A stretch of 64,000 nucleotides of DNA from IMG/VR virus record IMGVR_UViG_3300044970_002959, positions 14,717-78,716 of that record. One strand, written 5' to 3'. The translations under genes were made by a program, and so were the position numbers. Numbering within the stretch: position 1 is the stretch's first letter; the number at the start of each line of letters is the position of its first letter. Positions 178 through 18,251 of this stretch are shown piece by piece. The stretch comes from a virus. The notes below the pieces were generated by a model. The model made no database searches. It was not told where the DNA came from and saw only the letters and a list, made by a program, of their open reading frames with translations.

Positions 178-3100
178 ATGGCCGCATTTAATCTTACAGC
201 AGAACTAAATATTAGAGGGCCGTCGAACCTAAATAGGGTTGTTGCGGATATACGCAGACAGCTTTCCACAGTTTCTTTAGATGTTAATATAAACCCCAAT
301 ACTTCTAGGGGTATACAAGCAGTAACTAGAGACGTAAGAGATTTAAGTGCCGCATTAAGAGATGCTCAGTCTAATGCTGTTGCGCTTGGGGCCGCATTGA
401 GGGGTATTGGTGGCAGTTTTAATAATTTGTCATCATCTGTTAACAACATAGGTAATAGTCTTGGTAGAGTAAGCACATCATCTACTGCTGTGTCCACCAG
501 TATAAAAGCGGCATCGTCAGAAATGGCAGAGTTCGGTAAGCAGTCAGCTTTGGCTATTAGAAGATTTGCTGCGTTTAGCGTAGCGACGGGCGCTGTTTAT
601 ACACTAGGAAAGGCTATCGCATCAGCATATTCTGAATTCGTAACATTCAATCAAGAGTTTGTTAGACTACAACAGGTAACAGATACTACCAAGGCTGGTC
701 TAGGTGGATTAGCTTCTGAGATTACAAGATTATCGACCAACTTAGGCGTTAGCTCTTCGGAGCTGTTAAATGTGTCGGTAACACTAGCTCAGGCAGGCTT
801 AAGCGCCGGAGAAACAAAGCAGGCATTAGAAGCATTAGCTAAATCAGCACTCGCTCCGTCGTTCGATGGCCTTAACGAAACTGTCGAGGGAAGTATCGCT
901 TTGATGAGACAGTTCGGCATTGGTGCTGGAGAACTTGAATCCGCTCTTGGATCGGTAAACGCCGTTGCTGCAAAATTCGCCGTAGAAGCCAGCGATATTA
1001 TTACTGCTATTCAAAGAACCGGTGGTGTGTTTGCCGCTGCTAGTCAAGGAGTAAGTCAGGGGAAAGATGCTCTCAATGAGTTCTTGGCAGTATTTACAAG
1101 TGTAAGAGCCACTACTCGTGAAAGCGCAGAAACTATCGCTACCGGTTTAAGAACTATTTTTACCAGAATACAAAGAACATCCACAATAGATTCTCTAAAA
1201 GAGTTTGGTATTACTCTAACTGATTTAGAAGGTAAGTTCGTCGGTCCTTTTGAAGCGATTAGGAGACTCTCTGATGGTCTTAGAACACTAGATCCTAGAG
1301 ATCTAAGATTCTCCGAGATAGTGGAAGAGCTTGGTGGTTTCAGACAGATCGGTAAGGTTATTCCTCTTATCCAACAGTTTGCTACAGCGCAACAAGCTCT
1401 TTCTGTTGCCCAAAAGGGTTCGGGATCGCTCGCTAATGATGCGGCTACAGCCCAAGAAGCACTTGCTGTGAGAATAACAAAAGTTAGAGAGCAATTCATA
1501 TCTCTAGTAAGAGACATAGGACAAAGCTCAAACTTTCAAGCGTTCGCAGACGTTTCCTTAAAGCTAGCCAGCGCATTAATATCCGTAGCAGATGCTGCTA
1601 AAGATGTGCTACCCGCTCTTGCTGCTATTACCGCTATTAGGGGTGTTGGCGCTTTGGGTCAGTTTTTTGGTGGTTTTAGCGGAGGAGTAAGTCGTCGTCC
1701 AAGAGGTTTTGCTACTGGTGGCGTTGTTCCTGGTAGCGGAAACGGAGATACTGTTCCCGCGATGCTCACTCCCGGAGAGTTTGTTATTCGCAAAAAAGCG
1801 GTAGCAGCTATTGGTACTAGTAATTTGCATAGAATGAATAAATATGCTGGTGGGGGCAGAGTCAAAAAATTTGCTAGAGGCGGAATAGCAAATGCTCCAA
1901 TGGTAGATGATATTATTCAAACTAGCGGATCAATACTACCAAAACCATCTTCGATACAAGATCTAATAAAAGCTGGCGGTGGCGGCGTTGATGTAGATAG
2001 AACACTCATAAGAACCACAGGAGATAAAGCGTACAGTAGCGCTCCGGGGAGCTCCAAGAATGCTGTTTTATCCAAGTACTTTAGGGACGACGAGAATAGA
2101 CTAAAAGATATACAATCATCACCACTAACATCATTTGGTAGAGCACTACAACAAGCTATTCGTGCTGGAGAACTAAAGGCCGCTAACGTTAGCATTATTA
2201 GTAAGTCTCGTAGAACACGAGGCGTTCCAGAATATTTAAGTCAACTTTTTGGCATCCCAGTTCAAAATATGGTATTTACTCAAGGAGGAGACAAGCAGCC
2301 CGCTATGGATGCTATTAGGTCTAAGGGTCCAAGAGCAAACAGGGTCTCTAGATTTGCTCTGGGCGGACTGGTACAAAGATTTGCACAAAAGGGGACCGGT
2401 TCGTACAGATCTGGTACTGTTAAGCCATTAAGTCCAGAAGAGCAATCCGAACTATCTGGTTTGCTTAGTCTAGAAAAAAGATGGCAAGACTCGGGACAAA
2501 AACTAAGAGCATTTACATCCGATAAACAATCTAGATTATCCCAACTTAAGTCTCGTAAAGAATTAGGCGGCGCGCAATCAGACGAAATTATTAATGGAAT
2601 AAAGCTATCTAAAACATTCGGCGTTTCATTTTTAGAGGGTGGAGCACCAGATATCTCTGCTACCATAAGCGATGTATTGGCTAGAGGTAATGCTACTGGC
2701 GTAGACAAGCTTAGGGAATTTATCGGGAATAAACAAAAGGCTAGAGGAGCTAGAATAACAACAGACGGCAAAAGTAGTACTTTATCTCCAGGAGGTAAAG
2801 ATATTTTTGATAGACAAATTATGAATGGATTGCCAGATCTATTTGATAATGCAGTAGCCGCTTTGCCAGAGCCACTAAGACCCGGAAGAGGGCAAGTATC
2901 AACAGATCAACTAATAAGCTCCTCTGCCAGACAAGCAGTAAAGGGCTATTTTTTTGAAGCCTTTATTAGAAGAGCTAGTCAAAATCTATTATCAGATAAT
3001 GACACAACAGACGCAATTTTTGATTTTACTGGGGCTGGCAACAAGGAGGCATTAGGAAGGCTATTTGGCGGTAGATTTGTGACGCCAAATGAATTTAAGG

Positions 3101-6100
3101 TATCTCCCACTCCTGAAAATATTGCTAATGCTATTTCCAAAGCCATAGCTATTAGTTCGCCATCAGCACTCCAATACTTTAATAGTGGAGGTAGTGTAGA
3201 GGACACGGTTCCAGCGCTCTTAACCCCAGGAGAGTTTGTTATTAACAAAAGAGCGGCCTCTAGACTAGGAGCTGCAAAATTAAATCAACTTAATAAAGCA
3301 GATAAGGTCCAAGGATTCAATAAGGGCGGTGTTGTTCAAAGATTTGCTGGCGGAGGCTCGGTACTCCCAGCCAGACCCGAAAATCCCACAAGAGGAAATA
3401 CTACCGCTGTTGGCGCGGCCATAGCAGCAATCAATGAAATGTCTTCTGCTTTAGAAGCACTAGGTTTATCAGCGTCCGCTTCTTCTAGACTGATAGAGGC
3501 TGGAGGAGCTATTAGTATAGCAGTATCTGAAAGAGCGCTTCAAGCGGATGTTAATAGACTTAGAATGGCTGGCGCCTCTGCTACAGATATCTATAGAGCA
3601 GAACAACAGCTTGCTAATGTTAGAGAACAAAATGCCAATAAGCTCAATACTCAACAAATTATGAGTGGTGCTACTGGTGGTACTCTACAAGATATTCAAA
3701 CCAGAGCAGAAACCGAAAGAGAAAGACTACTAGATGAGCGCCGAACAATTATGGCCTCTCGCGGCAGAACACAACAGGAGATAGAAGAAACTCTTGCTAA
3801 TGACACCGGCTTCCAAGACCATGTTAGACGCAGAAGTTACGAAACTGCAACAACAGCAGTAACTGGGGCTCCGGCCAGAAGCATGAGAGACGCTGGCGTA
3901 ACCGGAGCAGATATCGAACAGTATGTTAATCAGAGCATGATGGACAGGAGAACCCTTGCCCAGATGGATGCTCAATTAATACGAACAAGAGAACAAGAGC
4001 TAAGAAGTAGTGCTGCTTTCGCGTCAGCATCATCTACCGAACAACGAAGAATGCTAGGAGAATTAAGAGCAAGGAATAATGAAGAAATTAGAGAGAGACG
4101 CAATATAGTTAATCAGTTGGCCAAAGACAGGGGCATGACATCTGGCTTAACTGGTGCTGTTGGTAGAGGATTTAGAACAACTGGCGCTTTGTTCGGTATG
4201 GGTACATTTGCTGAAAATGAGAATGTTCCTGGTGGTGGTATGGGTGGTAGACTGAATAGATTTAGTGCTGGCGCGCAAAGAGCTGGTTTGGGCTTGAGTT
4301 TGGCTGGTGGTATGATAGGCAATACTATTGGCGATGCGATAGGAGGCAAAACCGGAGCTGGAATAGGTGCCGCAACATCTGCTTTTGCTAGTAGTGTTGG
4401 AGTTGGCGCTATGTTTGGTCCTGTAGGCGCTCTTGCCGGTGTTGTTACCGGAGCAACAGCAGCTATCAAAGCATGGACAGATGCTGTATCCGATGCTACC
4501 CTAGCAGAAGAAGCTAGTAAAACAGAGAAAGCATCCATTAAGATACAAAAAGGTTTTGAAAAACTAGAAAAAAGTACCACAAACGCAGAATCTTCTTCTC
4601 TTATCAAAGATATTGTGGATAATCTTAGAAGCACATCTGGTAGCTTTTCTAGGTCTGTAAATAGCACCACAGACAAGATTGCTCCCGCATCGGGCTGGTC
4701 TGGCTTTTTTGCAGACCTTGGTAATTCCACAGCTAATATCACATCAGAAATAGCATCACAGGGTTTTGAGTCTTTAGGAAACATACTCAAGTCCGGATTG
4801 AATCTGACTGGCTTAACCAATATGCCTATTCAAGACACACCAGCTAATTTTAACGGCTTCAGAAGAGAAATAGACACAAATCAACTAGGTAAAGAAATAG
4901 CAGCATTAGCTCGAAATAGTCAAGTTAATAGAGACCTACCACAATTGTTTGAACAAGGATTACGCAAAGGTAGAACATTCGAGCAAATATCTGCCGAAAT
5001 TGGACCAGACTCTCTTGCTTCTATGAAGGAAATATTTGCTGTTTCTCAAGGCAATGAGACGATAACAAGTTTGATGGCAGATAGATCCGCCGCTAGACAA
5101 CAGCTTTCTCAGGCCGATACCGATGAGGATAGAGACAGGATAAAGAGAAGAATAGATAATCTTAATAAGTTAATTAGACGTATAGCAGAAGAATCGTTTA
5201 ATAATGATATTAAGAAGAGTATTGTTGATAAAATAGCAGCAGAAAAGAAACTAGAACAAGCAGCAGCATCCGCAACCGTTCGCATAAATTTATTTGCTAG
5301 TGTGTTAAACGACATATCTTCCGCAGTTAATAAGGCTGGTGTGGATTTCCAGGCAGCTCAAAGACAAATAGAAATTAATCTTGGGAGTGCATTTGGAGAT
5401 CAGGTTCAGATGGCTGGCCCAGACAGAAGAAACGAAAATGTATTGGAGAATATGAGTGCTTATTCTGTTGAGGCTATTAGATCAGAGATTGGTAAGATCG
5501 GGTCTGATCTTAAGTTTAATCCGGCTGTGGTTCAAGAGGCTCAGTCGGCAGCCACGAATAAGAAAATTTTAGAAACAGAATTACCGAAAATACTATCAGA
5601 AATTGCGGCTAAAGAAAAGAAGGGCTTCGACCCAGAAGGATCTGCTGCTCAAGTTATTAGAAATAGACTGTCCACAGTGCTAGAGGGGAAGGTAGATGAT
5701 CCTAATGCTATAATTAGTAATGTAATAGCTAAAATCACAGAAAAAATCCAAACCAATTCTAGACAGGGACTAACAGTAGAGGAATTATCTAAAGACAATA
5801 ATGCTATTAATGAAATATTGAGCTCTGATACTAAAACACTAGAAATATTTAATAATCTAATTAAAATGGCCAATGATCAAGTGGCCGCACTAACAGCCTC
5901 ATTTAATAGATTTTCTGGCCAACTAAATAGATTTTCAGAACTACAAATACAAAAAGAAAATATCGGAATAGAAGGAGAAAATCAGTTAACACAAGCTCTG
6001 GGTGGAAATCTTAGCTTGTTTGATATGAATGAACCTTTTGAGAATGCTATAGATATTCTTACTTCCAGAATCGGTGCTGATGGAAGACCAGCTAGAGGCA

Positions 6101-9100
6101 CAGGAACACTAGACCCAGCACAAATAATGCAAAGAATGCTTGAGAAAGAAGCAGAAGCGGCAAATATTCAAAAACAACTAGATCAAGAGAGGCCATCTGT
6201 TGATAGTGCTAGATTCAAAGAACTAAATTCTTCTCTGGCCAGAACAACAGCAGAGGCCAGAAATCTACAAACAGCCCACCAGAAACTAGCAACAGACTCT
6301 AGTAGAGCCTCCAACGCTCTTGCTAAAATTGGTGAGATTAGACAGCAGAACGAAAATAGACAATCGATGTTTTTAGAAATATTGAAAAATGCGAACAACC
6401 CAGAATGGCAAATGGAGTTCATCAATAGCGTTGATAACTATCAAAGAGTTATGGCTGGGCAAAATGTTGGGCCGGATGGATGGGCCAGTGCGGTTCAGGG
6501 CTTAGAGAATGCTCTAAGAGCAAATCCAAGAGATGCCAAAGACATACAGGAAAAATTTATACAGAATGCTGCGAATCTACAAGGACTAGATAAAAATTTC
6601 GTTCAAAATATGATGAATTCAATAGGTATTGGGCTTGGAGAACCATCACCAGAGATGAAGGGATTGATAGATGAATTCTATAGATTTAATGAGGTGCAAC
6701 AAGAGGCCATTAATCAGTCGGCAGAAAGGATTATTACTGCCGGTAAAGAATTTTTAACAGCTGTTAATCAGGCTGGCGCGAATTGGAACGCTACTGTTGG
6801 TGCTGGTGGACAAAGAGATCCTTCGGTAGTTAAACCAGCGAATCCACCACGGCTCGCTCGTGGCGGAGTTGTATATGCTCAAGACGGTGGACATATGGTT
6901 AATTTCCAACCAAGAGGAACCGATACTGTTCCAGCTATGTTAACTCCCGGTGAGTTTGTTGTTAATCGCAAAGCTGCTGCTAAGAATATGGGTCTTCTTA
7001 AGGCTATTAATAGTGGAGCTAAGGGTTATAGTAGGGGGGGTATTGTTTACCTACAACAAGGTGGCTATGTTCCTAAAGACACTACAATTGATGCAGATGC
7101 TAAGGCATTAGAAGTAGAGATGAATACTGAATATGCTGCTGTTGATCAAAAAATAGCAGAAAATGATGCATTAATGGCTTTATTAAGGAGTGACTATGCT
7201 AATATACCAGAAGGTCCTCAAAAAGAAGCTATTCTAGAGAAGATAAGACAAACATATGTTGCAAATGGCGAATTACAAACCCAAAGAAAACAAATCGAGG
7301 AATCTTTTATACCAAGAATGGACCAAATTAGAGAAAGAAGAGATTTAGAAAGGGACAGAAGAATAGCTGGTACTGGTGAATTAAATATGTTCGATATGGA
7401 GTCTCTAGATACTACTGATATTCCGGGAGATGAGCTTCGTTTCAAAGGAATGGATTTTGCCACTGGTAGGGTTGATCTTAATAGGTTGACACTCGAAGAA
7501 CAGAAACAATACGAAACATATCAAGCAGAGGTAGAGAAGAGAAAACAAGCAAGAATACAAAAGGCAAAAGATCGCGTTGCGTCCGTAGACGGACCTCCAG
7601 CAGCCACATCATCAGCACCACAACAAGAACCCGAACTCACCAAAGACTTCTTAATTGGTGGTTACAAACCAAAACCCATTGGTATGGGACCAGACTCAAA
7701 TAAGCCCGATAGCGGAAAACCACCAATTCAAAGAGGTCCTTACGACCCAAATAAACCGGATGACGGCAGGCCAGCAATGGAGATGTTGTCTGGTTCTGAT
7801 GTAACGCCAGAAGAAAGAATAGCTGCTAGAAGAAATGCTGCTAGGCAAGCATACTTAGCAGATAAAAACCAAAAGAGAGCCAACTTCTTAGCAAACAACC
7901 CTTTCTATGCAAAGAAAGAACAAGAAAAACAACAGAGAGCACAACAAGAGCAAAAAGATGCTCTAGCATGGAAACAAAAACAGTTAGGACCAAATGCCAA
8001 AATCAGCTCAGAAGAAACACAAGACATTATTAAAGAGCATAGGGCAATGAAGAGGGAGGAGAGAGCCAAGAAGGAAAGACTAGCTACCTATGGCACGGAA
8101 GACAAATTAAGTCCAGAAAAAGCTAGAGAAATATTAGATGAAAAGAGGGGCGCTGCATTAGCAAAAAGATTCGGATGGAAAGCAGACTCTATTGCTGGAA
8201 CTTATGAGGGAGGAGACCGTCTTGAGCCACAAGAAGTAACTAGATTACCGGCTAAAGATAGGGAGCTTTTAACGCAATATCAAAATGCCCAAATAGCAAA
8301 AGCAGCAGAAGCAGAAAGAAATAAGAAAAAATCCGAAATGGTTGCTGCTAGAGAGAAAGAAGACGCAACATTTAGAGCCTCTTTAGATAAAAAAGCCGAA
8401 GAAAGTATGGCTACCTATAGGAGCAACAAAGCAAAAGAAACCCAGCTACAGCAAGAGGCAGATAAAAAGAAACAAGAAGAAGCTGGCGCTGCTGCTATAG
8501 CAAAAAAGGCAGCTGATGAAAAGAGACTACAAGATAGTATCAAGGCACAAAATGCTGAGTACGAAGCTCAAAAACTAGCAAAAGAACAGAAAAAACTCAA
8601 AGAGGAAGCAGAAGCCAGAGACCTTAAAGAAGCACAAGTAACAGCAGTAGAGAATGCCGTACAAATAGATCCTGTATCAAGACAGATTATTAATATTAAT
8701 CCAGATCAAGTAAACTCTAGAGTTGCTGAACTAAGAGAGAAAAAGAAGGCAAAGCTTGATCCATTTGTGGCCGGAGGCAAGCGTTCCGGAGCATCAAAAC
8801 CACGCACAGAAGCAGATTTAGCAAAAATAGACCCAGAATTTGCTCAATTAAATAAGGAACTAGAAAGAGAAGAATTAGTAAAAGCTGGTATTGATAGAGC
8901 GAGAACTAAATTTGATGAAAAGAGAGCAGAAGAGAATCTTGCCACACAAGACAGATATGAAGAATTAAAATCGCTAGCAGATAAAAATAAACTTAGTCCG
9001 CAAGACTCACAAGAATATGCTACTCTAGCAATCAAGAGAGGAGTTAAGCCATCAGAAATTGCTGGTGGCGGAGCTGTTCGTGCGGAAAGAGTTCTAAGAG

Positions 9101-11079
9101 ACGATGCTCTTGGATATGAAACTCGTCAACAACTAGAACAAACCGAATTAGATACCTATAGAAAGAAGTATGGAGAAAGAAAGTCTGTTATAGATCAAGT
9201 TCTAGATGAGGCAGCTGCTAGTGCTGGTAGTGGCGTTGAAGGTCTTACTGGCTCGAAGACACTTGGAACCATAGCTCAAACAGTAGCAAGAATTGGTGTT
9301 GGGGCGCTAGATCCCGCCGAAATGGCTGTGGGTATTGGTACTGGTGGTATTGGCAAAGCATTGTCTGCCGCACAAGATGTTGCCAACTCTGGTAAGGCAG
9401 TAGCTAATGCCAAAGGAATTGCTGCTAGAGCAGCGCAAAATCCATCAAGATACACGCCGGGAACGCTCAGACTACCCAAAAGCACAAAAGCTGCCAATCC
9501 AAGAAGTGTACTAGATGAAGCTGGTAATTTTAGATCACAAAAAGATGTAGAGGCGGCTAGAGAAGCTCGTAAAATAGAGAGACATGCTAGAAAAGATGCT
9601 GGAATAGCAAGAGCTGTTAAGGTTGAAGATCAAAAGGCATCGCAATTTTTAGAAGAGGCTGGGGACAGTGTTGATAATAGTGTGTCCTCATCGCCAAACG
9701 AAACAAAGGACTTGTCTCTTTTCGATGGAAGAGAGGTATCTCCAAACTCTGTTCCGTGGGTCGCCAGAGAAAAAACCAGAAGCAGTCTGGAGTTGGCCTG
9801 GGCCGTTGAAGATGGAAAAAAGATGGCAGAGAGTTTCAAAAGACAAGGTATAGAGATGCCAGACTTTACCTCCCCGTCTCCCGCTACAACAAGTAGAACC
9901 ACAGCAGCAACAAGAGCAGCATCCACAAAAACAGGAGGCTCTACCAGAACATCGCTATCGCAAGCAATAGCGGAAGCAGACAAGGATGAGATACTCAAAA
10001 AATATGGTAGCGGCGGAGAAGGCAAATATGGTGGTAGCAATAGATACGATTTATCCAAAGAAGCTGCTGAAGGACCAATAACAGCGAAGGAACGCAAAGA
10101 AGCAATTAAGTCAGTTAAAGATGCTAAAAAAACAGCAGAGATTCGGGCAACCCAAAAGGCTTCTGCGGATAGAAGCGTAGAAGAGCAAACATACGCGGCT
10201 TTACAAAGATTAGAAAAAGATAAGTCTAATAGAAGATCTTTAGTTAGGTCTGGTGTCGGTGCTGCGGGAGCTGGAGCAGTAGCCTATAATAAGGATGCTT
10301 TAGCTAATGCTATAGTTTCAGAAGAAGAAATGCGCAGACAAATACGTAAGGCTAGAGGTATGAGTACCGGCGGTGTGGTTTATGCGGCAAAAGGCCAGTT
10401 AATTCCTTTTACCCCAAAGGGTACGGATACGGTTCCCGCTATGCTAACGCCGGGTGAATTTGTGATCAACCGTGCTGCCACACAAAAACACCTACCCTTA
10501 TTAAAAGCTATTAATAATAATCAAGTACCAGGATATGCTAAAGGTGGCAAGGTTCGCTATTTTAGCGGTGGGTCAGATGGTCCTATATCTCCTTCGTCCG
10601 GCGGTTCTGGGGGTGGTGGCGGTGTATCTAATATTAGTTTGGACACATCGGGCTTGGATACCGCTTTTAATTCTTTTGCTACTAATGTAGAGTCACTAAA
10701 ATCTGTAATGGACAGCTTTGCAGCAGCAGCATCTAGCATTAGCGGTGGTTTTAGCCAGTTAAGTCAATTGGAGGCTGGGGCAAATAGGATTGGTACAGCA
10801 GCTACCTCGATTAGTGCAGCATCACAAACCTTCGGGTCTGTAATCGCTAACTTTAATACGTCGATAGCCGCTATGCAAGAGGCCTTTTCTAAGATTCCTA
10901 GCGCTGTAGATTTTAGAGTAAGTGGTTCGGTACCAATCAATATAACAGTAGATGTTAATGGTGGAGACGGATTACAAGATAGTTTAGCTCAATTCCAAGA
11001 CCAAATTTTTACCGAAATTTCTAATGGAATTAGCAACGCAATGCCAGGTGTGAATATAAGTTTTACTCGAACAACTTAG
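178..11079 (+). CDS. Giant tail tape measure protein (3633 aa) with repeated GG/DTVP modules and inserted domains
   Basis: N-terminal TP901-type TMP core (LAQAG, ESAETIATGLRTIFTR), Gly/Ala hydrophobic segments, long helical regions, four DTVP(A)xLTPGEFV motifs; first gene of tail block. Confidence 0.9.
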   Translation: MAAFNLTAELNIRGPSNLNRVVADIRRQLSTVSLDVNINPNTSRGIQAVTRDVRDLSAALRDAQSNAVALGAALRGIGGSFNNLSSSVNNIGNSLGRVSTSSTAVSTSIKAASSEMAEFGKQSALAIRRFAAFSVATGAVYTLGKAIASAYSEFVTFNQEFVRLQQVTDTTKAGLGGLASEITRLSTNLGVSSSELLNVSVTLAQAGLSAGETKQALEALAKSALAPSFDGLNETVEGSIALMRQFGIGAGELESALGSVNAVAAKFAVEASDIITAIQRTGGVFAAASQGVSQGKDALNEFLAVFTSVRATTRESAETIATGLRTIFTRIQRTSTIDSLKEFGITLTDLEGKFVGPFEAIRRLSDGLRTLDPRDLRFSEIVEELGGFRQIGKVIPLIQQFATAQQALSVAQKGSGSLANDAATAQEALAVRITKVREQFISLVRDIGQSSNFQAFADVSLKLASALISVADAAKDVLPALAAITAIRGVGALGQFFGGFSGGVSRRPRGFATGGVVPGSGNGDTVPAMLTPGEFVIRKKAVAAIGTSNLHRMNKYAGGGRVKKFARGGIANAPMVDDIIQTSGSILPKPSSIQDLIKAGGGGVDVDRTLIRTTGDKAYSSAPGSSKNAVLSKYFRDDENRLKDIQSSPLTSFGRALQQAIRAGELKAANVSIISKSRRTRGVPEYLSQLFGIPVQNMVFTQGGDKQPAMDAIRSKGPRANRVSRFALGGLVQRFAQKGTGSYRSGTVKPLSPEEQSELSGLLSLEKRWQDSGQKLRAFTSDKQSRLSQLKSRKELGGAQSDEIINGIKLSKTFGVSFLEGGAPDISATISDVLARGNATGVDKLREFIGNKQKARGARITTDGKSSTLSPGGKDIFDRQIMNGLPDLFDNAVAALPEPLRPGRGQVSTDQLISSSARQAVKGYFFEAFIRRASQNLLSDNDTTDAIFDFTGAGNKEALGRLFGGRFVTPNEFKVSPTPENIANAISKAIAISSPSALQYFNSGGSVEDTVPALLTPGEFVINKRAASRLGAAKLNQLNKADKVQGFNKGGVVQRFAGGGSVLPARPENPTRGNTTAVGAAIAAINEMSSALEALGLSASASSRLIEAGGAISIAVSERALQADVNRLRMAGASATDIYRAEQQLANVREQNANKLNTQQIMSGATGGTLQDIQTRAETERERLLDERRTIMASRGRTQQEIEETLANDTGFQDHVRRRSYETATTAVTGAPARSMRDAGVTGADIEQYVNQSMMDRRTLAQMDAQLIRTREQELRSSAAFASASSTEQRRMLGELRARNNEEIRERRNIVNQLAKDRGMTSGLTGAVGRGFRTTGALFGMGTFAENENVPGGGMGGRLNRFSAGAQRAGLGLSLAGGMIGNTIGDAIGGKTGAGIGAATSAFASSVGVGAMFGPVGALAGVVTGATAAIKAWTDAVSDATLAEEASKTEKASIKIQKGFEKLEKSTTNAESSSLIKDIVDNLRSTSGSFSRSVNSTTDKIAPASGWSGFFADLGNSTANITSEIASQGFESLGNILKSGLNLTGLTNMPIQDTPANFNGFRREIDTNQLGKEIAALARNSQVNRDLPQLFEQGLRKGRTFEQISAEIGPDSLASMKEIFAVSQGNETITSLMADRSAARQQLSQADTDEDRDRIKRRIDNLNKLIRRIAEESFNNDIKKSIVDKIAAEKKLEQAAASATVRINLFASVLNDISSAVNKAGVDFQAAQRQIEINLGSAFGDQVQMAGPDRRNENVLENMSAYSVEAIRSEIGKIGSDLKFNPAVVQEAQSAATNKKILETELPKILSEIAAKEKKGFDPEGSAAQVIRNRLSTVLEGKVDDPNAIISNVIAKITEKIQTNSRQGLTVEELSKDNNAINEILSSDTKTLEIFNNLIKMANDQVAALTASFNRFSGQLNRFSELQIQKENIGIEGENQLTQALGGNLSLFDMNEPFENAIDILTSRIGADGRPARGTGTLDPAQIMQRMLEKEAEAANIQKQLDQERPSVDSARFKELNSSLARTTAEARNLQTAHQKLATDSSRASNALAKIGEIRQQNENRQSMFLEILKNANNPEWQMEFINSVDNYQRVMAGQNVGPDGWASAVQGLENALRANPRDAKDIQEKFIQNAANLQGLDKNFVQNMMNSIGIGLGEPSPEMKGLIDEFYRFNEVQQEAINQSAERIITAGKEFLTAVNQAGANWNATVGAGGQRDPSVVKPANPPRLARGGVVYAQDGGHMVNFQPRGTDTVPAMLTPGEFVVNRKAAAKNMGLLKAINSGAKGYSRGGIVYLQQGGYVPKDTTIDADAKALEVEMNTEYAAVDQKIAENDALMALLRSDYANIPEGPQKEAILEKIRQTYVANGELQTQRKQIEESFIPRMDQIRERRDLERDRRIAGTGELNMFDMESLDTTDIPGDELRFKGMDFATGRVDLNRLTLEEQKQYETYQAEVEKRKQARIQKAKDRVASVDGPPAATSSAPQQEPELTKDFLIGGYKPKPIGMGPDSNKPDSGKPPIQRGPYDPNKPDDGRPAMEMLSGSDVTPEERIAARRNAARQAYLADKNQKRANFLANNPFYAKKEQEKQQRAQQEQKDALAWKQKQLGPNAKISSEETQDIIKEHRAMKREERAKKERLATYGTEDKLSPEKAREILDEKRGAALAKRFGWKADSIAGTYEGGDRLEPQEVTRLPAKDRELLTQYQNAQIAKAAEAERNKKKSEMVAAREKEDATFRASLDKKAEESMATYRSNKAKETQLQQEADKKKQEEAGAAAIAKKAADEKRLQDSIKAQNAEYEAQKLAKEQKKLKEEAEARDLKEAQVTAVENAVQIDPVSRQIININPDQVNSRVAELREKKKAKLDPFVAGGKRSGASKPRTEADLAKIDPEFAQLNKELEREELVKAGIDRARTKFDEKRAEENLATQDRYEELKSLADKNKLSPQDSQEYATLAIKRGVKPSEIAGGGAVRAERVLRDDALGYETRQQLEQTELDTYRKKYGERKSVIDQVLDEAAASAGSGVEGLTGSKTLGTIAQTVARIGVGALDPAEMAVGIGTGGIGKALSAAQDVANSGKAVANAKGIAARAAQNPSRYTPGTLRLPKSTKAANPRSVLDEAGNFRSQKDVEAAREARKIERHARKDAGIARAVKVEDQKASQFLEEAGDSVDNSVSSSPNETKDLSLFDGREVSPNSVPWVAREKTRSSLELAWAVEDGKKMAESFKRQGIEMPDFTSPSPATTSRTTAATRAASTKTGGSTRTSLSQAIAEADKDEILKKYGSGGEGKYGGSNRYDLSKEAAEGPITAKERKEAIKSVKDAKKTAEIRATQKASADRSVEEQTYAALQRLEKDKSNRRSLVRSGVGAAGAGAVAYNKDALANAIVSEEEMRRQIRKARGMSTGGVVYAAKGQLIPFTPKGTDTVPAMLTPGEFVINRAATQKHLPLLKAINNNQVPGYAKGGKVRYFSGGSDGPISPSSGGSGGGGGVSNISLDTSGLDTAFNSFATNVESLKSVMDSFAAAASSISGGFSQLSQLEAGANRIGTAATSISAASQTFGSVIANFNTSIAAMQEAFSKIPSAVDFRVSGSVPINITVDVNGGDGLQDSLAQFQDQIFTEISNGISNAMPGVNISFTRTT

Positions 11080-11088
11080 GGAGCAACC

Positions 11089-13950
11089 ATGTCGATTAAA
11101 TATTATGCTAATAAAGTACAAGAAACATCTAATACAACTACCACCATTAATCCCGGTGGCAACCTTGTGCTAAATGGCGCATCCGTAGGCTACAGGAGTT
11201 TGTCTGGCACTATAGGACCAAACAACAGCTTATCTTATTATATTTATCGTATAGACGCATCCGCTAATTTTGAATGGGAAATTGGTATTGGTTATATCTC
11301 TAGTAGCGGTGGAGTTAACCAGCTAGTAAGAGAAAAGGTAATAGCCTCTAGTACTGCTGGTGGATTTGTTGGTTTCACAGCAGGTACGAAATACATAGAA
11401 CCAATTATTAGTCAAGATAGAGTCAACTCTTCTTTCGTTAACCTAGAAGAAAGATCATCAAGCTTCACAGCCCCGGTAGCATCCGCCACATATGTAATAG
11501 ATGCTTCGTCAAATAATATTACTGTTTCTTTACCTAGCGTTTCCGGTATAGAGCCCGTTGTTTTGGGTTTCATGCTAAATAAGACCATAGGAAATCAATT
11601 CGAACAATCTGGTGCTATTGAACTAGTTCCTAGCGGCACAGAAACCATCAATGGCACAAATTTACCATATGATATTTCTATTAAAAAAGACTATATACAA
11701 TTAATATCTGTACCCTCTCAGAGCGGATGGTTGGTATTGGACCCTATCCAGGACTCTACCACAGCTTATGGTAATGTTGGTACTATTCAATTTGCTAATA
11801 ATCAAGCTTTTAGTGGAGTAGCTTCTTTGTCTTGGGAGCCAACCTCTAGCTCTTTATTAGTCGGTGGTTCTGGAACTATATTGTCCGCGGATGTAATAAT
11901 CCCAACAGGTACGCAAACAGTTGTATTTAATGAACAATCATTAGATAAAGATTTCAGAGTAGAAGGTAGTGGCAGCACACACTTATTATTCGTGGATGCT
12001 AGCACAAACAATGTTGGCATAAATACTTCGAACCTTACCGATAAACTAACCATCACATCAACTTCGGGCTCTGGTCTAACCATACAAGCTAGTGGTGCTG
12101 GTCCCGCAATATCTCTTAAAAATACCGCTCTTAGTGGAGTAGCATCATCAAATACCATAGGAAGCATATCTTTTGATGCTCTAAATAACTCGGGCAATCC
12201 TGTTCAATATGCAGAGATATATGGTAAAATATTATCTAATAATAGTCTATCAGAAGATTCTGTTGTTAATATAGATGTAAATAAAGATGGATCTAAAGAA
12301 ACTGTAGCTTCTTTTAGTGCTAGCGGAGTTACTCTTGGCTTTAATAGCCAAAATGTTGATGGCATTTTGTTGGGTTCTGTTTCTAGTAATCAAGGAGATA
12401 ATGTTGTTCTAGGTTACTATAATAATGTTTGCGGTAATAATTCGGTGGTTTTGGGAAATAATGCTGTTTTATCTACTGGCACTTTTGGTGGTATTATTGG
12501 TCTCGACCATACCGCATCTGGTAATAATGTGTGGATCATCGGCGGGTCGGGAGTAACAGCAACGGGCAATAATAGTGTATACCTAGCATTAAACAACAAT
12601 ACCTATGTAAAAATTGATAATCAGTCTAAGCTAAGATATACAACACAATCTACAGATAATGTTTCTATTGGCATTAATAATACTGCTATTTTAGCTAGTG
12701 GAGTAGAAGAGTCGTTGTCTATGGAGTTCGTGAACTCTTCTGGAGTACAAAAAACGGGCTTGTTAATATCTAGTCAAATAAACGGCGTGGTTGGCGGTTC
12801 GGAGAATACAGCACTAACCGCAAAAATTATTCAAGACGGAACTCAGTCTCAGGTCGTGAGAGTAGAGAAAAATAATGTTGTTATTGGTAAAAACGCAACA
12901 GTAGGCAACAATGTTATTTATGGTCACGACAATTCTGTTCTATCTAGTGGTAATATAGTATATGGAAAAAATATCAATGCTAGTGGTACAAATAATGTAT
13001 TGCTTGGTAAAAATATTAGTGGTAGCGGAAATAATATTACCGTATTAGGATCAGATAATACGTGTGGAGCATCGGGTAATCTTGGCGTGATAATGGTCGG
13101 AAACAACAATCTTGCTAATGAAGACTATGTTGTGGCTATAGGTGATAATAATGCTGCTAGTGGTCTTTATGCTATAGCTTGTGGATATAATAACGGAGCA
13201 CATGCGGAGTATTCTGTTGCTGTTGGCTCCGATAACTTGGCTTTATCTAGAGCTAGTGTGTTGGTTGGCAGAAGCAATAGCGCTAGTGGCACATCGTTAG
13301 ATGCTTCTGTATTTGCTGTTGGTATTGGAAATACAGCTAGTATCAGCAACTCTGGAATTTTGGTTGGTTATGGTAATGAGCTTTATGGATCTGGTGGCTT
13401 ATTGTGTGGTACTGATTTGTATGCTTCTGGCAATAATAATATTGTTGTAGGAAGATCTTCTGATGTAGTTGGAACAAATAATGTAATAGTAGGCCATAAT
13501 ATTGCTTATTCTGGATCTAATAGCGTAGTTATTTCTGGTAGTGGATTGGTATCTTTATCTGTTGGCCCAGCTAGTTTAAATGTAGTTAGTAGTGGAGTGT
13601 TGTATTCTGGATATCCTACCACTGGCGGAGGCTCACCACTAGTAATAGAAAACAATATAATAAAAGCCTCTACCAGTTCCGAAAGATACAAAGAAAACAT
13701 AAGGCCATACGACAAAGGCCTTGAAGACTTAATGAAATTGGATCCTGTTTATTTTAATTATAAAGGGAATCCAACAACCAGAGCTGGCTTAATAGCAGAA
13801 AAAGTTTCAGCGTCCGGCCTGGAAGAATTTGTTGTAAGAGAAGACAACGGGACTATAGAAAGCATTAATTATCATCATATGATAGTTTTATTAATTAATT
13901 CAATTAAAGAACTTCAGGCAGAAATTAATGAGCTTAAAAAAAATAACTAA
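11089..13950 (+). CDS. Tail fibre/spike with GxxN beta-roll repeats and C-terminal S74-type intramolecular chaperone
   Basis: Many VxxGxxN repeats; C-terminal SSERYKENI...LxPVxFNYK...GLIAE...LINSIKEL followed by coiled coil. Confidence 0.85.
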   Translation: MSIKYYANKVQETSNTTTTINPGGNLVLNGASVGYRSLSGTIGPNNSLSYYIYRIDASANFEWEIGIGYISSSGGVNQLVREKVIASSTAGGFVGFTAGTKYIEPIISQDRVNSSFVNLEERSSSFTAPVASATYVIDASSNNITVSLPSVSGIEPVVLGFMLNKTIGNQFEQSGAIELVPSGTETINGTNLPYDISIKKDYIQLISVPSQSGWLVLDPIQDSTTAYGNVGTIQFANNQAFSGVASLSWEPTSSSLLVGGSGTILSADVIIPTGTQTVVFNEQSLDKDFRVEGSGSTHLLFVDASTNNVGINTSNLTDKLTITSTSGSGLTIQASGAGPAISLKNTALSGVASSNTIGSISFDALNNSGNPVQYAEIYGKILSNNSLSEDSVVNIDVNKDGSKETVASFSASGVTLGFNSQNVDGILLGSVSSNQGDNVVLGYYNNVCGNNSVVLGNNAVLSTGTFGGIIGLDHTASGNNVWIIGGSGVTATGNNSVYLALNNNTYVKIDNQSKLRYTTQSTDNVSIGINNTAILASGVEESLSMEFVNSSGVQKTGLLISSQINGVVGGSENTALTAKIIQDGTQSQVVRVEKNNVVIGKNATVGNNVIYGHDNSVLSSGNIVYGKNINASGTNNVLLGKNISGSGNNITVLGSDNTCGASGNLGVIMVGNNNLANEDYVVAIGDNNAASGLYAIACGYNNGAHAEYSVAVGSDNLALSRASVLVGRSNSASGTSLDASVFAVGIGNTASISNSGILVGYGNELYGSGGLLCGTDLYASGNNNIVVGRSSDVVGTNNVIVGHNIAYSGSNSVVISGSGLVSLSVGPASLNVVSSGVLYSGYPTTGGGSPLVIENNIIKASTSSERYKENIRPYDKGLEDLMKLDPVYFNYKGNPTTRAGLIAEKVSASGLEEFVVREDNGTIESINYHHMIVLLINSIKELQAEINELKKNN

Positions 13951-15423: not shown

Positions 15424-16875
15424 ATGAGTTCATTTAATTTTGTAAATGTTGGCGGAACCAATCTTAGGCCAGCTCCGTATGTTAGCACTAGTTACGAGTA
15501 CAATAAGTTTGGAGAGGTTATTATAGGTGGTGTTTTGCTAGTTACGCTAAACGGAACTTTGGTTGGTGAAGATATTATTAGTCAAATGAATAATTTAAGT
15601 TATAAGCAAATGAACACAAATTGTATTAATGTTATAATTGGGTGTTCTGGTAATAGTGATTTTTTAGATGGTTCTGGCAGAATTAGATCAATAGACATAA
15701 ATCCATCGGACCAGCCTTTCGTGGCTACTTATAGTATGCAGATAGCGATAGAAACAATAGGAGGCAAACCAGCTGTTGAGCCAGACTCTCAATTTTTAAA
15801 AAATAATTGTTTGAAAAACGTAGAATACTTACAAAGCTATAGTGAGACAATTAGTATTCAGGCAGAAGGATCAACTATAGGTTCTACAGATTCTATTATG
15901 AATGTTAGTAAATCATATGTAAAAGCTTCTGGACAAATATCTGTAGCTTCTTATGGTAGAGAAATTTGCGGAGTACCTGAATTTAAAGGAATAGATCAGT
16001 CCCTTGATATCATTAAACAAAGAGCAAATGCTCTATTATCCTTACAGTCATGCGACACCAGCCCCATCTCTACGTTTAGCGGATGGTCCAAATGGCTAGA
16101 CACAAAAAGGTTAGACATAGATACTGGCACAGGTACCGTAACCTGGTCTTTTGATCTATATATGAGCAAAGGAGGATGCGCTCCATCAGCATGGGTGGAC
16201 ATAACAACAGAAGATAAATTTGATGAAAAAAAGAAAATGAAAACCAAAATTATCAACGGAACCATCAAGGGTCTGTCCTCAGCAACAACAGACTATCTTG
16301 GTAATAAAGCCTCTGGTTCTGATAAAATGAGTAATGCTATGTCTGCTTATGGAAAGATATCCTCTTCTATTACTTCTGGTTCGTGGGCTGGAGATGGTAT
16401 AGTATTGTCTGGTACCGAGGGTTCTTGCATAGCCCCAGACCCATGCGTAAATAATAAGGTTTGTTATCAACGAATATCTAGCAATATTACTAAATCTATT
16501 ATAAGTGGTGAAATAACTTTTAGTGCAGAATTTGGAGATGTGAGCGCTTGTAAGGCAAACGGAGGAGGTATAGGCACTATTGATGTTAGTGTAGAAATTA
16601 GCAATCCGTCAGTGAAAATTGTGGAAATTATAGTGCCTAATGGTGTAAATGCTATTGTGCAACCAATAGGGGATACTCCAGCAAGAGCTACAGTAACAGC
16701 CAGAGGAACGCTATCAGGATGCGATCAAAGTAAGATCGCTCAATTAAAAAACTGCGTTCTAACAGAACTCAATAAAAAAGCTAGTAATTTTAATGGATGG
16801 ATTATACTTAAGAACAAGGAATCTATTGGAAATTTTTCTTATAGTTTAACTAGAGAGTATATAAGATGCGGCTAG
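15424..16875 (+). CDS. Putative tail structural protein, paralog B
   Basis: Tandem paralog of 13980..15422 of near-identical length. Confidence 0.6.
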   Translation: MSSFNFVNVGGTNLRPAPYVSTSYEYNKFGEVIIGGVLLVTLNGTLVGEDIISQMNNLSYKQMNTNCINVIIGCSGNSDFLDGSGRIRSIDINPSDQPFVATYSMQIAIETIGGKPAVEPDSQFLKNNCLKNVEYLQSYSETISIQAEGSTIGSTDSIMNVSKSYVKASGQISVASYGREICGVPEFKGIDQSLDIIKQRANALLSLQSCDTSPISTFSGWSKWLDTKRLDIDTGTGTVTWSFDLYMSKGGCAPSAWVDITTEDKFDEKKKMKTKIINGTIKGLSSATTDYLGNKASGSDKMSNAMSAYGKISSSITSGSWAGDGIVLSGTEGSCIAPDPCVNNKVCYQRISSNITKSIISGEITFSAEFGDVSACKANGGGIGTIDVSVEISNPSVKIVEIIVPNGVNAIVQPIGDTPARATVTARGTLSGCDQSKIAQLKNCVLTELNKKASNFNGWIILKNKESIGNFSYSLTREYIRCG

Positions 16876-18251
16876 GACCATCAACATATAAAAAGTTTTT
16901 TTCTGGGATTTCTAGCAACGAATTTGTTAGAGTATCAGACATAAATAATAATCACAATTATACAGGCTCTGCTTACGACATACCACGGTATGATTTTACT
17001 AATAACAACGGAGGCTGGACAACCTCTCCCACCTCGGGAACTCCTTTTGTTTGGGAACCAGGAAGATGGTATATAGTTGGAAATAACAATAAGCAGGCCA
17101 TCTTGACCAGCCCCAGCATACCACACAATACTTATAAAGTAGTAGTTGAACATAAATGGAACTTTGAAAACATACTAGACCATGGAAAACTACAGTGCTC
17201 TATAGATAATGGTGTTAATTGGGTTGAGATTCCGTCTGTCTTATTTAGCGAAGGATGGTACAATACAACGAATGGATGGAGTGGCCTACAAAATAAATAT
17301 ATCCGTAGTGAATGTCTTATAAATCTAACAGGATTGCCGATTGGCCCAGGTTTTAAAATTAGATTTGTTGGTATTTGGAATAATAGTACCTTAACACCAA
17401 ATCCCAACTGGGATATATCCTCTGTTTCTATCGAAGGATTGGGTTCTGTATCGTACACATATCAAATTACTAAATATGAGATTACAAATAACGAGTATTG
17501 CCTATTTTTAAATAGTGTTGATCCCGCAGGAACTAATCCAAATAGCATCTACACAGCAGAAATGACATCATCCGCAACAGGAGGAATACAGCTGCTACCA
17601 TCTGCCCCAAACGGCCATAAGTATATGACAAAGACAAATATGGGAAATAAACCAGTTAATTTTATTAATTGGTGGAGAGCAGCGAGATATTGCAATTGGC
17701 TATATAATGGAGGTAATAAGTATAGAAAAAGCGATAATACTAGTATAGCACCACAAAATTTTGGCGCCTACAATATCGGCACCACAACTTCGGGATCTAC
17801 TCTGTTTAGGCCCTTGAGTAGTAGGTTTAGGATACCAACACTAAATGAGTGGATAAAGGCTGGATACTACATGGGAGATGGTGAAAACTCTGGATATTGG
17901 TCGTATCCGACACAAAAAAATATCACACCAGAATGTATAAGTATTGTTACTTCTGGCGGAGATCCGATAGTGTCACCGACCCACTCTACTTTTCTATCTT
18001 TAGATGCTAGTATTATTCAGGACTTTAATTTAGAGATTCTTAGTAGTATTTATTCTGATACTATGGTTAGACCCATTCATAATCAAATCATTCTTAATTC
18101 ACAAATGTATGAAGATGTGCTTGTAGAAACAAAGGATACCGGAACGATGATTAATTCACAAATGTATGGAGATGTGCTCGTAGAACCGAAGGATACCGGA
18201 ACGATGGTTAATTCGCAAATGTATGGAGATGTGCTTGTGGTTAGTTCATAG
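16866..18251 (+). CDS. Virion adhesin-like protein: beta-sandwich domain, N-half of FGE-sulfatase (C-type lectin fold) domain, C-terminal 19-aa repeats
   Basis: TKYEITNNEYCLFLN, NKPVNFINWWRAARYCNWL, RIPTLNEWIKAGYY are FGE-sulfatase motifs; the GxxDMxGNVxEW/GFR half is absent. Confidence 0.7.
   Translation: MRLGPSTYKKFFSGISSNEFVRVSDINNNHNYTGSAYDIPRYDFTNNNGGWTTSPTSGTPFVWEPGRWYIVGNNNKQAILTSPSIPHNTYKVVVEHKWNFENILDHGKLQCSIDNGVNWVEIPSVLFSEGWYNTTNGWSGLQNKYIRSECLINLTGLPIGPGFKIRFVGIWNNSTLTPNPNWDISSVSIEGLGSVSYTYQITKYEITNNEYCLFLNSVDPAGTNPNSIYTAEMTSSATGGIQLLPSAPNGHKYMTKTNMGNKPVNFINWWRAARYCNWLYNGGNKYRKSDNTSIAPQNFGAYNIGTTTSGSTLFRPLSSRFRIPTLNEWIKAGYYMGDGENSGYWSYPTQKNITPECISIVTSGGDPIVSPTHSTFLSLDASIIQDFNLEILSSIYSDTMVRPIHNQIILNSQMYEDVLVETKDTGTMINSQMYGDVLVEPKDTGTMVNSQMYGDVLVVSS
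18096..18239 (+). repeat. 57-bp tandem repeat, ~2.5 copies (NSQMYxDVLVExKDTGTMx)
   Basis: Copies start at 18096, 18153 and 18210 with high DNA identity. Confidence 0.9.

Follow-up and report, generated by a model that had tools for sequence, protein, structure and literature searches.

The window analysed here is a stretch of 64,000 nucleotides of viral DNA (positions 14,717 to 78,716 of the IMG/VR record IMGVR_UViG_3300044970_002959), in which a single open reading frame on the plus strand (178..11079) encodes a tape measure protein (TMP) of 3,633 amino acids, referred to below as P0001. The protein matches the Pfam model PhageMin_Tail (PF10145; aa 182-374, 82.2 bits against a cut-off of 33.2) and TIGR01760 (aa 143-451, 74.3 bits against a cut-off of 28.8), and by these profiles it is a TP901-family tape measure protein. 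Upstream of the gene lie a terminase and a major head protein, and downstream of it fibre-like proteins with S74-chaperone and FGE-sulfatase domains; profile searches identified no tail tube or chaperone genes. The source is probably an uncultured phage with a non-contractile tail, and a tail of approximately 550 nm is predicted if the whole 3,633-aa chain measures, at about 0.15 nm per residue. A megablast search against cultured phages returned zero matches, and tblastn recovered distant TMPs only.

The segments of P0001, all on the plus strand, are separated by four copies of a module of approximately 70 residues each with the pattern GG...DTVPA(M/L)LTPGEFV...GG. The four modules of 60-70 residues that the original prediction had described are present, and their positions had been given correctly to within a few codons. 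The DTVP motif lies at aa 524, 1009, 2249, and 3417 (nt 1747, 3202, 6922, and 10426), and in all four cases A(M/L)LTPGEFV comes after it and [FYLM]xxGGxV motifs lie on its flanks. The N-terminal body S0 (aa 1-506, 178..1695), of TP901 type and common to approximately 215 of 231 family members, has a hydrophobic stretch (aa 467-498) and a Gly-rich segment at its end, and is followed by module copy 1 (aa 507-575, 1696..1902), located by the four-copy profile and its flanking GG motifs. Then come a folded α/β domain, S1a (aa ~569-726, 1882..2355), the short GG motif RFALGGLVQRFA that closes it (aa 725-736, 2341..2385), which was found by motif match where a short version of the module had been noted at nt ~2350, and a variable cassette, S1b (aa 737-997, 2386..3168). 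Module copy 2 (aa 998-1065, 3169..3372) precedes the long helical body S2 (aa 1066-2221, 1,156 aa, 3373..6840), and module copy 3 (aa 2222-2301, 6841..7080) precedes the charged, hypervariable spacer S3 (aa 2302-3390, 7081..10347). Module copy 4 (aa 3391-3466, 10348..10575), located like copies 2 and 3 by the four-copy profile, sits at the same position as the module in ordinary TMPs, and is followed by the C-terminal tail S4 (aa 3467-3633, 10576..11076), which is partly conserved across the family.

Each of the four copies reaches 102-108 bits with a profile made from them, the alignment of the four has 22 invariant columns, and a search with the profile matched 19,068 representative proteins among 1.84 billion; the invariant columns and the number of matches together exclude a repeat that arose by chance. 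Such a scan had been put forward along with the original prediction. Over 1,214 instances the 13 core residues are 85-99% conserved, with the exception of the Met (76%), and the D, T, E, and N are near-invariant. Within the P0001 gene the copies share 61-72% identity at the DNA level, with differences that are mainly synonymous, and in a tree of the copies from 20 four-module proteins the grouping is by position and not by protein, with the first copies forming a clade at 100/97 support and the second copies at 95/80. The positional clustering and the mainly synonymous differences indicate that each copy is old and under selection, and sequence comparison has in this way shown each of the four to be a positional ortholog under purifying selection; the same two observations rule out recent duplication or gene conversion. 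At only 61-72% DNA identity the copies are poor handles for within-gene recombination, which speaks against the role of recombination handle suggested for them earlier.

Despite well-filled alignment columns, AF2 models the modules at a pLDDT of 30-54 overall, with module 1 at 33-54 and showing a central helix only; as a monomer, the module is thus shown in these models to have no confident fold. Pfam holds no model of the module itself, and its Tape_meas_lam_C model was rejected as an equivalent, as it covers residues 627-701 of the lambda TMP gpH, upstream of the module. The NCBIfam model TIGR01541 spans the region only within a 332-position lambda-specific model, which leaves P0001 unmatched. 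Also rejected was an identity with TMP motif 3 (mt3) of Hatfull, which is approximately 110 aa long, contains a conserved Trp, and has Rv0320/Rv1728c as relatives. Neither the module motif nor giant marine TMPs turned up as described in literature searches.

The segment S1a is modeled by AF2 as an α/β domain with a pLDDT of 89-98, in which a strand (98-100) leads into D101-V-D103-R-T105 (model numbering; aa 605-609) at a pLDDT above 90, and a four-helix insert lies between two strands. Conservation of the DVDRT residues is 90% or higher across 36 homologs, and they belong to a conserved acidic pocket formed by DD, DxDRT, S-K-S, and K. The modeled fold is Rossmannoid and places DxDxT where a core strand ends, as in a HAD superfamily phosphatase. 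Consistent with that, the best Foldseek matches are HAD phosphatases (probability 0.99 but E 0.04; PSP and AphA at a probability of 0.9-0.99 but E 0.04-0.14), a comparison with BFVD gives PNKP phosphatase and HAD-like matches, and HAD families come up in the ESM Atlas at 0.90-0.91. VIA-align places CheY receivers at Z 7.3, ahead of class C acid phosphatases at Z 6.3, the CheY superposition having an rmsd of 3-4 Å over 100-110 residues and a Z below the guideline of 8 for the tool. The residue order DD ... DxD ... S ... K would be as compatible with a receiver as with a permuted HAD. Sequence profiles of S1a match no Pfam family at E ≤ 10 (Response_reg included) and no NCBIfam family, hhalign found no match between the S1 alignment and T5 Dmp, and the search for stand-alone homologs of S1 found only TMP fragments. 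In 33 of 38 homologs S1a has an FxxGG motif at either end, and for approximately 10 of these the closing GG motif is the first GG of the next full module. S1a is predicted to be a confidently folding HAD/CheY-like α/β domain between FxxGG motifs, and the HAD-like segment of the original prediction is supported at the level of the fold (AF2, Foldseek, VIA-align, BFVD, and ESM Atlas).

S1b is present in approximately 10 family members and missing from several close relatives; the ~130 aa at its C-terminal end make up a conserved block that includes an E (FFEAF), a D (IFDF), and an ExK (NEFK), which are invariant in 8-9 homologs at identities down to 37%. These residues fit the E ... hhD ... ExK pattern of a PD-(D/E)xK nuclease, so that the nuclease-like segment proposed earlier retains its motif but lacks backing from a fold or a profile: no Pfam, PDB-sequence, or Atlas family matched S1b, and AF2 yields low-confidence helices from a shallow alignment, with the exception of one helical hairpin. 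S2 is approximately 80% helix in AF2, at a pLDDT of mostly 70-90, is conserved in 30-50% of the family, and contains a Gly-rich hydrophobic stretch (aa ~1361-1440) with a TM-like window (aa 1402-1431). A fold search with its model gave generic helical matches only, and by its model S2 is plain helical TMP. S3 contains 35-42% K/R/D/E, with a high helix propensity and a Pro-rich patch (aa 2481-2560), and is common to less than 5% of the family. Its sequence is only 13-33% alignable in several relatives with a 90% identical S0 (up to 82% in P0004), but its length stays at 920-1140 aa, and it looks like a length-conserved charged spacer. The TMP chain is in this way mostly α-helical, as modeled for S2 and as indicated for S3 by composition only, with S1a as the α/β exception. 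It had been claimed that the stretches between the modules are not TMP-like helices, which does not hold for S2, the largest of them and one that had been left undescribed; the charged region of approximately 1,100 aa is real but looks like a spacer rather than an effector. Structure prediction on the segments, as had been suggested, separates an α/β domain (S1a) from a helical body (S2) and a low-confidence cassette (S1b). S4 is probably the hub-binding end of the TMP, by analogy with lambda gpH 818-849 and the TMP residues 1658-1699 of phage Douge, both of which structures show attached at the tip of the tail (PMC10721106, PMC13033339).

The N-terminus of P0001 recurs in more than 1,200 metagenomic TMPs, which are 2,000-6,400 aa long and carry 2-13 modules, and the longest other module-bearing proteins reach approximately 7,900 aa. 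The number of modules correlates with TMP length (r = 0.58), with an irregular spacing of about 50 to 1,800 aa. The family median for the distance between the last module and the C-terminus is 137 aa; in P0001 copy 4 is 167 aa from the end of the protein and copies 1-3 are internal. The corresponding distances elsewhere are 68 aa in lambda, approximately 80 in a Rhizobium phage, approximately 120 in the Gordonia phage Bialota, and 238 in Douge. In ordinary short TMPs a single copy is retained, close to the C-terminus, as had been expected of the GG/GEFV motif. Among close relatives the presence of S1b and the sequence of S3 vary between flanking modules that are 75-89% identical, and these comparisons support the view of the module as a constant island among variable segments. 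The cassette idea of the original prediction stands as far as constant modules and a variable S1b and S3 are concerned, but not as regards free shuffling, which is rejected by the collinear order of segments across the family, with the S1a/S1b order swapped in two proteins as the exception. One related protein, P0008, begins within a module and seems to result from a broken ORF call.

Against 177,635 PDB sequences, the module matches lambda gpH 732-789 (E 5e-5) and two internal sites of the Douge TMP gp16, 965-1034 and 1410-1461 (E 4e-8). The profile of 1,214 instances scores the lambda module at 25.7 bits, with an hhalign probability of 80%, and by these comparisons the module is homologous to gpH 732-789. 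Lambda gpH is cut after tail assembly in a Gly-rich region near its C-terminus, which gives gpH* of ~78 kDa and gpHC of ~14 kDa, with the exact site and the protease not being known (PMC12617516). The masses of the two products place the cut at approximately 710-730, a gel-derived estimate with a margin of about 20 residues to either side, and the module starts at 729-732. A link of the module to cleavage is therefore plausible, in that it is homologous to a part of gpH adjoining the cut region, and this link draws on one phage and on gel-derived masses.

The reading that we favour, if tentatively and at somewhat less than an even chance, is that P0001 is a TP901-type TMP lengthened by units of a segment plus a module, in which the module serves as a joint and the last copy marks a cut. 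An ordinary TMP plan, consisting of a helical body, a hydrophobic and Gly-rich stretch, the module, and a short tail, looks to have been extended by further units; the module is an iterated form of an old TMP motif that is single near the C-terminus in ordinary phages, e.g. at lambda gpH 732-789, and S1a and S1b are inserted between GG motifs after module 1. Inside the lumen of the tail, the GGxV and GEFV strands of the three or six chains may pair across chains, a pairing suggested by low monomer confidence and strand-like motifs only, and the module joints may hold a bundle of more than 0.5 micrometre in register and punctuate it. At least the last copy would mark the chain for a cut after tail assembly, as in lambda, and the whole protein with its embedded domains would, in the manner of TMPs generally, exit the tail before the DNA. 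The conservation of the 65-residue module could instead reflect a catalytic or partner-binding role.

A purely structural module that involves no proteolysis, required at intervals in the building of very long tails as a chain staple or as a contact to the tube lumen or an assembly chaperone, with the adjacency to the lambda cut being coincidental, is rather unlikely, if the strongest of the alternatives. It would accord with the increase of module number with TMP length, with purifying selection on all copies, with the lack of a stable monomeric fold, and with the length of the Douge tail, where a 1,699-aa TMP with two internal modules matches a 270-nm tube (PMC13033339); the tube corresponds to the full TMP length, and the module-bearing regions therefore count in the ruler. 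However, the irregular spacing of the modules makes for a poor fit to a periodic staple, and short TMPs retain their one copy near the C-terminus, where lambda is cut.

Less probable still, and on balance unlikely, is the polyprotein of the original prediction, in which every module is a cleavage or refolding linker and the TMP is cut at GG into HAD-like, nuclease-like, and charged effectors injected before the DNA. Part of that proposal persists: S1a is folded between [F/Y/L]xxGG motifs that resemble the LRGG end of ubiquitin cut by JAB peptidases, the module adjoins the lambda cleavage region, lambda gpK has JAB and NlpC/P60 domains, S1b has its invariant E...D...ExK, and S1b and S3 are exchanged among close relatives. 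What does not persist is the notion of a chain made of effectors, given that approximately 60% of the protein (S2 and S3, ~2,200 of 3,633 residues) is a helical ruler or spacer and that the nuclease fold lacks support. As for the linker, Prok-JAB, Peptidase_M23, and NLPC_P60 had no match in six frames of the contig, which is 54% complete, and the gene is split at a module in none of 23 related loci. The module-bearing mycobacteriophages and Gordonia phages are also not known to encode gpK-like proteases, which counts further against the polyprotein.

In a bolder reading, the GG/DTVPAMLTPGEFV module of lambda, actinophages, and a very large clade of uncultured marine phages would be an assembly-triggered self-processing element, which cuts the packed TMP chains at the flanking GG, so that giant TMPs would be true polyproteins that free S1a, and perhaps a nuclease-like S1b, into the host ahead of the DNA. 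We regard this as quite unlikely, but if true it would also explain the cleavage of lambda gpH to gpH*. The rival view of the module as catalytic, be it an assembly-triggered self-cleaving element or an oligomerising half-barrel that binds or cuts the wall, is very unlikely. Such a role would agree with the near-invariant D, T, E, and N, with the unfolded state of the module monomer in AF2, with the protease of gpH not being known, and with a contig devoid of a candidate among the JAB, M23, and NlpC/P60 families searched; the pattern GD-x-VPA-x-L-x-PGE-x-V may resemble double-psi barrel lytic domains. Against it, the module has no profile or fold match to a peptidase or lytic family, and wall-hydrolase activity of lambda virions is not reported (PMC12617516). 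A last possibility, in which TMP genes were serially fused or duplicated and the internal copies are inert remnants without present function, is already disfavoured and highly improbable: S0 and module 1 together have the look of a whole small TMP, suggesting that the protein grew by accretion, but the internal copies are as conserved as the terminal one over deep divergence, with differences that are synonymous.

TMPs are among the least understood parts of the tail, and the module of ~65 residues, which lies inside lambda gpH ~690-817, is one of their most conserved features, spanning lambda, actinophages, and marine phages, with as many as 13 copies in TMPs that reach ~7,900 aa. In lambda, Douge, or Gordonia phages it offers mutagenesis and mass spectrometry a well-delimited target. 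The family indicates a large clade of uncultured phages whose tails are predicted to measure 0.3-1 micrometre, and a HAD/CheY-like S1a would widen the known TMP "cargo" beyond wall hydrolases.

Among known systems, lambda gpH shares with P0001 the motif FATGG...(x)PA..(x)GEFV...A....G..L..L..GYATGGYV, a hydrophobic and Gly-rich stretch ahead of the module (gpH 691-731, mirrored by the end of S0), and a C-terminal tail after it, which binds the hub in lambda and probably does so in P0001. It differs in having one copy in 853 aa, as opposed to four in 3,633 aa with three of them far from the C-terminus, and in its N-terminal body, which is TMP_2 and not PhageMin_Tail/TP901; lambda also encodes gpK, whereas this contig, at 54% completeness, has no such gene. 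The module is absent from the resolved structures of lambda, where gpH ~690-817 is missing, and likewise from those of Douge. The TMPs of Douge (gp16; PDB 8zdo) and of Gordonia phages come from cultured phages and, like P0001, hold more than one module inside the TMP, but they have two copies as compared to 4-13, no shared N-terminal family, and no HAD-like insert. The Nodularia phage kac65v162 is a further cultured phage that carries at least two modules. The TMP repeat PF05017 is likewise a case of internal repetition tied to TMP length, and Belcaid et al. reportedly described tandem-repeat units in TMPs whose internal repetition relates to length; those repeats are short, helical, and arranged head to tail, whereas P0001 has a nonhelical motif of ~70 aa at distances of 50-1,800 aa with unrelated segments in between. 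Finally, the mt3 of TM4 gp17, the Rpf motif of Barnyard, T5 pb2, and SPbeta YomI resemble P0001 in placing a folded domain of catalytic type within the ruler, and embedded TMP domains of that kind are delivered to the cell envelope at infection (PMC1796659). Those inserts are peptidoglycan hydrolases, whereas S1a resembles a phospho-Asp Rossmannoid domain and S1b carries a nuclease-type motif.

The protein P0001, encoded as a single ORF of 3,633 aa (178..11079, + strand), is a tape measure protein (TMP) by its profile matches, with PhageMin_Tail at aa 182-374 (82 bits), TIGR01760 at aa 143-451 and several PHROG TMP families over its first ~560 aa. On a 78.7-kb source contig that is 54% complete (CheckV), its gene is preceded by terminase and major head protein genes and followed by fibre-like genes. 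The latter encode large proteins, at window 11089-13950, 16866-18251 and 19552-24816; one downstream protein has an S74 intramolecular chaperone domain at its C-terminus together with beta-roll and YadA-like repeats, and FGE-sulfatase domains (C-type-lectin fold) occur in two. As no sheath-sized gene was seen between the head and TMP genes, the tail is likely non-contractile. Megablast found no close cultured phage, and the tblastn matches, SPbeta-type and other TMPs, were no more than 22-29% identical. Immediately upstream of the TMP gene (L004:13962-14813, before window base 178) is a conserved ORF of ~280-300 aa, kept in this position in 22 of the 23 related loci (L005-L027) and without Pfam or PHROG assignment, which could encode a chaperone for tail assembly or some other partner of the TMP.

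The repeated GG/DTVP module of the original prediction is present and well located, in four copies (aa 507-575, 998-1065, 2222-2301 and 3391-3466) and a short version, RFALGGLVQRFA, at nt ~2350. The DTVPA(M/L)LTPGEFV motif occurs at aa 524, 1009, 2249 and 3417, and each of the four DTVPA cores has [F/Y/L/M]xxGGxV motifs around it and a short helix, A....L..(L/I/M)N, after it. The copies are 46-51% identical to copy 1, share 22 invariant columns and each score 102-108 bits with their joint profile; between the 61-nt cores DNA identity is only 61-72%, the differences falling at synonymous positions. Module 1 is preceded by a membrane-like hydrophobic stretch and a Gly-rich run (window 1579-1701).

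Searched against 1.84 billion cluster representatives, the four-copy profile matches 19,068 proteins at E <= 1e-3. At E <= 1e-30 there remain 1,103, which carry several copies, with as many as 13 in proteins ~7,800 aa long. A whole-length search found the N-terminal ~560 aa in more than 1,200 proteins of 2,000-6,400 aa. At a strict threshold, the 232 family proteins analysed have 2 to 9 copies each; the first module lies near residue 522, the last at a median distance of 137 aa from the C-terminus, and the spacing between modules ranges from <100 to ~2,000 aa. Cultured phages of Gordonia, Mycobacterium, Ralstonia, Burkholderia, Rhizobium, Paracoccus, Dinoroseobacter, Brevundimonas and Nodularia carry it once or twice in their TMPs, for instance a Rhizobium phage TMP of 1,065 aa, where it ends up ~80 aa short of the C-terminus, and the 2,146-aa Bialota TMP, where the distance is ~120 aa. 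Per-position conservation of the core across 1,214 instances is 85-99% (Met excepted, at 76%), an uncommon level among TMPs.

A tree built on 80 modules, taken from 20 four-module proteins, sorts the copies by position, the first forming a clade at 100/97, the second at 95/80, and the third and last a joint clade at 99/96, inside which they are largely separated. The duplications are therefore older than the divergence of the 20 proteins, and every copy has been retained under selection. Recent conversion of the copies is ruled out by the same clustering.

The 3,312-aa TMP gp180 of the cultured 147-kb cyanophage vB_NspS-kac65v162 of Nodularia (L109:9259-19197) has two or three modules clustered at aa 892-1116, in its first third and away from the C-terminus, which makes this phage a possible laboratory model for modules in internal positions. 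A partial core match (57.6% identity over 33 aa, E 8e-4) to a hypothetical protein of the 205-kb Synechococcus phage Bellamy (NC_047838, 7795-7893) may lie outside the classical TMP context. The called ORF of the relative P0008 (2,920 aa) begins with MQDTVPALLTPGEFV inside module 2, without the entire N-terminal core, and is probably broken or miscalled rather than a natural split.

Outside the modules, the conserved TP901 core makes up segment S0 (aa 1-506). S2 (aa 1066-2221), kept in 30-50% of the family, is ~80% helical in the AF2 model (pLDDT mostly 70-90) with a Gly-rich hydrophobic stretch; a fold search with it gave no specific match, and as modelled it is ordinary TMP body, contradicting the expectation that the inter-module stretches are not TMP-like helices. 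S3 (aa 2302-3390) is 35-42% charged and helix-prone, with a Pro-rich patch. It is alignable over just 13-33% in several relatives in which S0, S2, modules 3 and 4 and the C-terminal S4 are 70-90% identical, with up to 82% in P0004, at ~41% identity; its length nevertheless keeps to 920-1140 aa, so that from these alignments it behaves as a spacer whose length is constrained and whose sequence is not.

S1 (aa 576-997) is the cargo-like part. Its first portion, S1a (aa ~569-726), is a folded alpha/beta domain (AF2 pLDDT 89-98) with HAD phosphatases as best Foldseek matches in the PDB (phosphoserine phosphatase, prob 0.99, E 0.04; AphA), PNKP-phosphatase and HAD-like viral proteins in BFVD, and HAD families in the ESM Atlas (0.90-0.91); an exhaustive aligner places CheY-type receivers on top (Z 7.3), ahead of class C acid phosphatases (Z 6.3). 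Across 36 homologs, conservation is at least 90% at the residues D-D, D-x-D-R-T, S-K-S and K. Since the fold matches point both ways and no sequence profile assigns it to HAD or Response_reg, the predicted HAD-like domain is better described as a putative HAD/CheY-like acidic-pocket Rossmannoid domain, membership of either family being unproven. S1a occurs in ~45 of 238 family proteins, with no stand-alone homologs found; [hydrophobic]xxGG brackets it in 33 of 38 cases, ~10 of which have S1a directly abutting the next full module. S1b (aa 737-997) is 82% identical in some close relatives, missing from others, and precedes S1a in two proteins. In its final ~130 aa, E (FFEAF), D (IFDF) and ExK (NEFK) are invariant, but the originally predicted nuclease-like domain finds no support in Pfam, PDB sequences, the Atlas or AF2.

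We tentatively favor, at somewhat under even odds, a composite model in which the module would be a joint that takes on structure only once the bundle of three or six chains is assembled and, by analogy with lambda, would flag the position of a post-assembly cut, in the last copy at least. A joint ordered in the bundle is proposed in view of AF2 monomer pLDDT values of 30-54 despite well-filled alignment columns. The same values fit a purely structural joint without cleavage, which we consider possible though clearly less probable; the homology to gpH makes a link to cleavage plausible. The originally predicted polyprotein, its modules acting as cleavage or refolding linkers between injected effectors, is unlikely: the modules are constant and S1 is variable, with at least one folded, GG-bracketed insert, but most of the protein is ruler, no JAB, M23 or NlpC/P60 peptidase was found on the contig, and no gene fission at modules occurs among the 23 related loci, the last two points speaking against a cut at every copy. 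That the module is itself catalytic is quite improbable, and internal copies as inert relics are ruled out by the position-wise clades with each copy retained.

A 42-instance module profile, run against all PDB sequences, matches lambda gpH 732-789 (E 5e-5) and two internal sites of the mycobacteriophage Douge TMP, 965-1034 and 1410-1461 (E 4e-8); gpH 732-785 scores 25.7 bits with the 1,214-instance profile, and hhalign gives 80% probability, so that the module is homologous to this part of gpH. Pfam Tape_meas_lam_C spans gpH 627-701, so that no Pfam model describes the module itself. The mt3 hydrolase motif of TM4 was rejected as the module's identity. PDB 8rk3 chain A (TMP, 1,158 aa) has a weak third match near its C-terminus (1014-1070, E 0.13). 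As the full 1,699-aa Douge TMP fits a 270-nm tube (PMC13033339), internal modules count as part of the ruler. Lambda gpH is cut after tail assembly within a glycine-rich stretch close to its C-terminus, giving gpH* (~78 kDa) and gpHC (~14 kDa), both site and protease being unknown (PMC12617516); residues ~690-817 are not resolved, and 818-849 alone are visible, bound to gpI (PMC12617516, PMC10721106). By mass, a split into 78-79 kDa and ~14 kDa falls at residue ~710-730, and the module starts at 729-732. This extremely conserved, unmodelled element, repeated in a very large uncultured clade, touches an open question in lambda. Lambda gpH 691-731 and P0001 467-510 are alike in having a hydrophobic stretch, then a Gly-rich run and then the module, which suggests that the three form one conserved unit.
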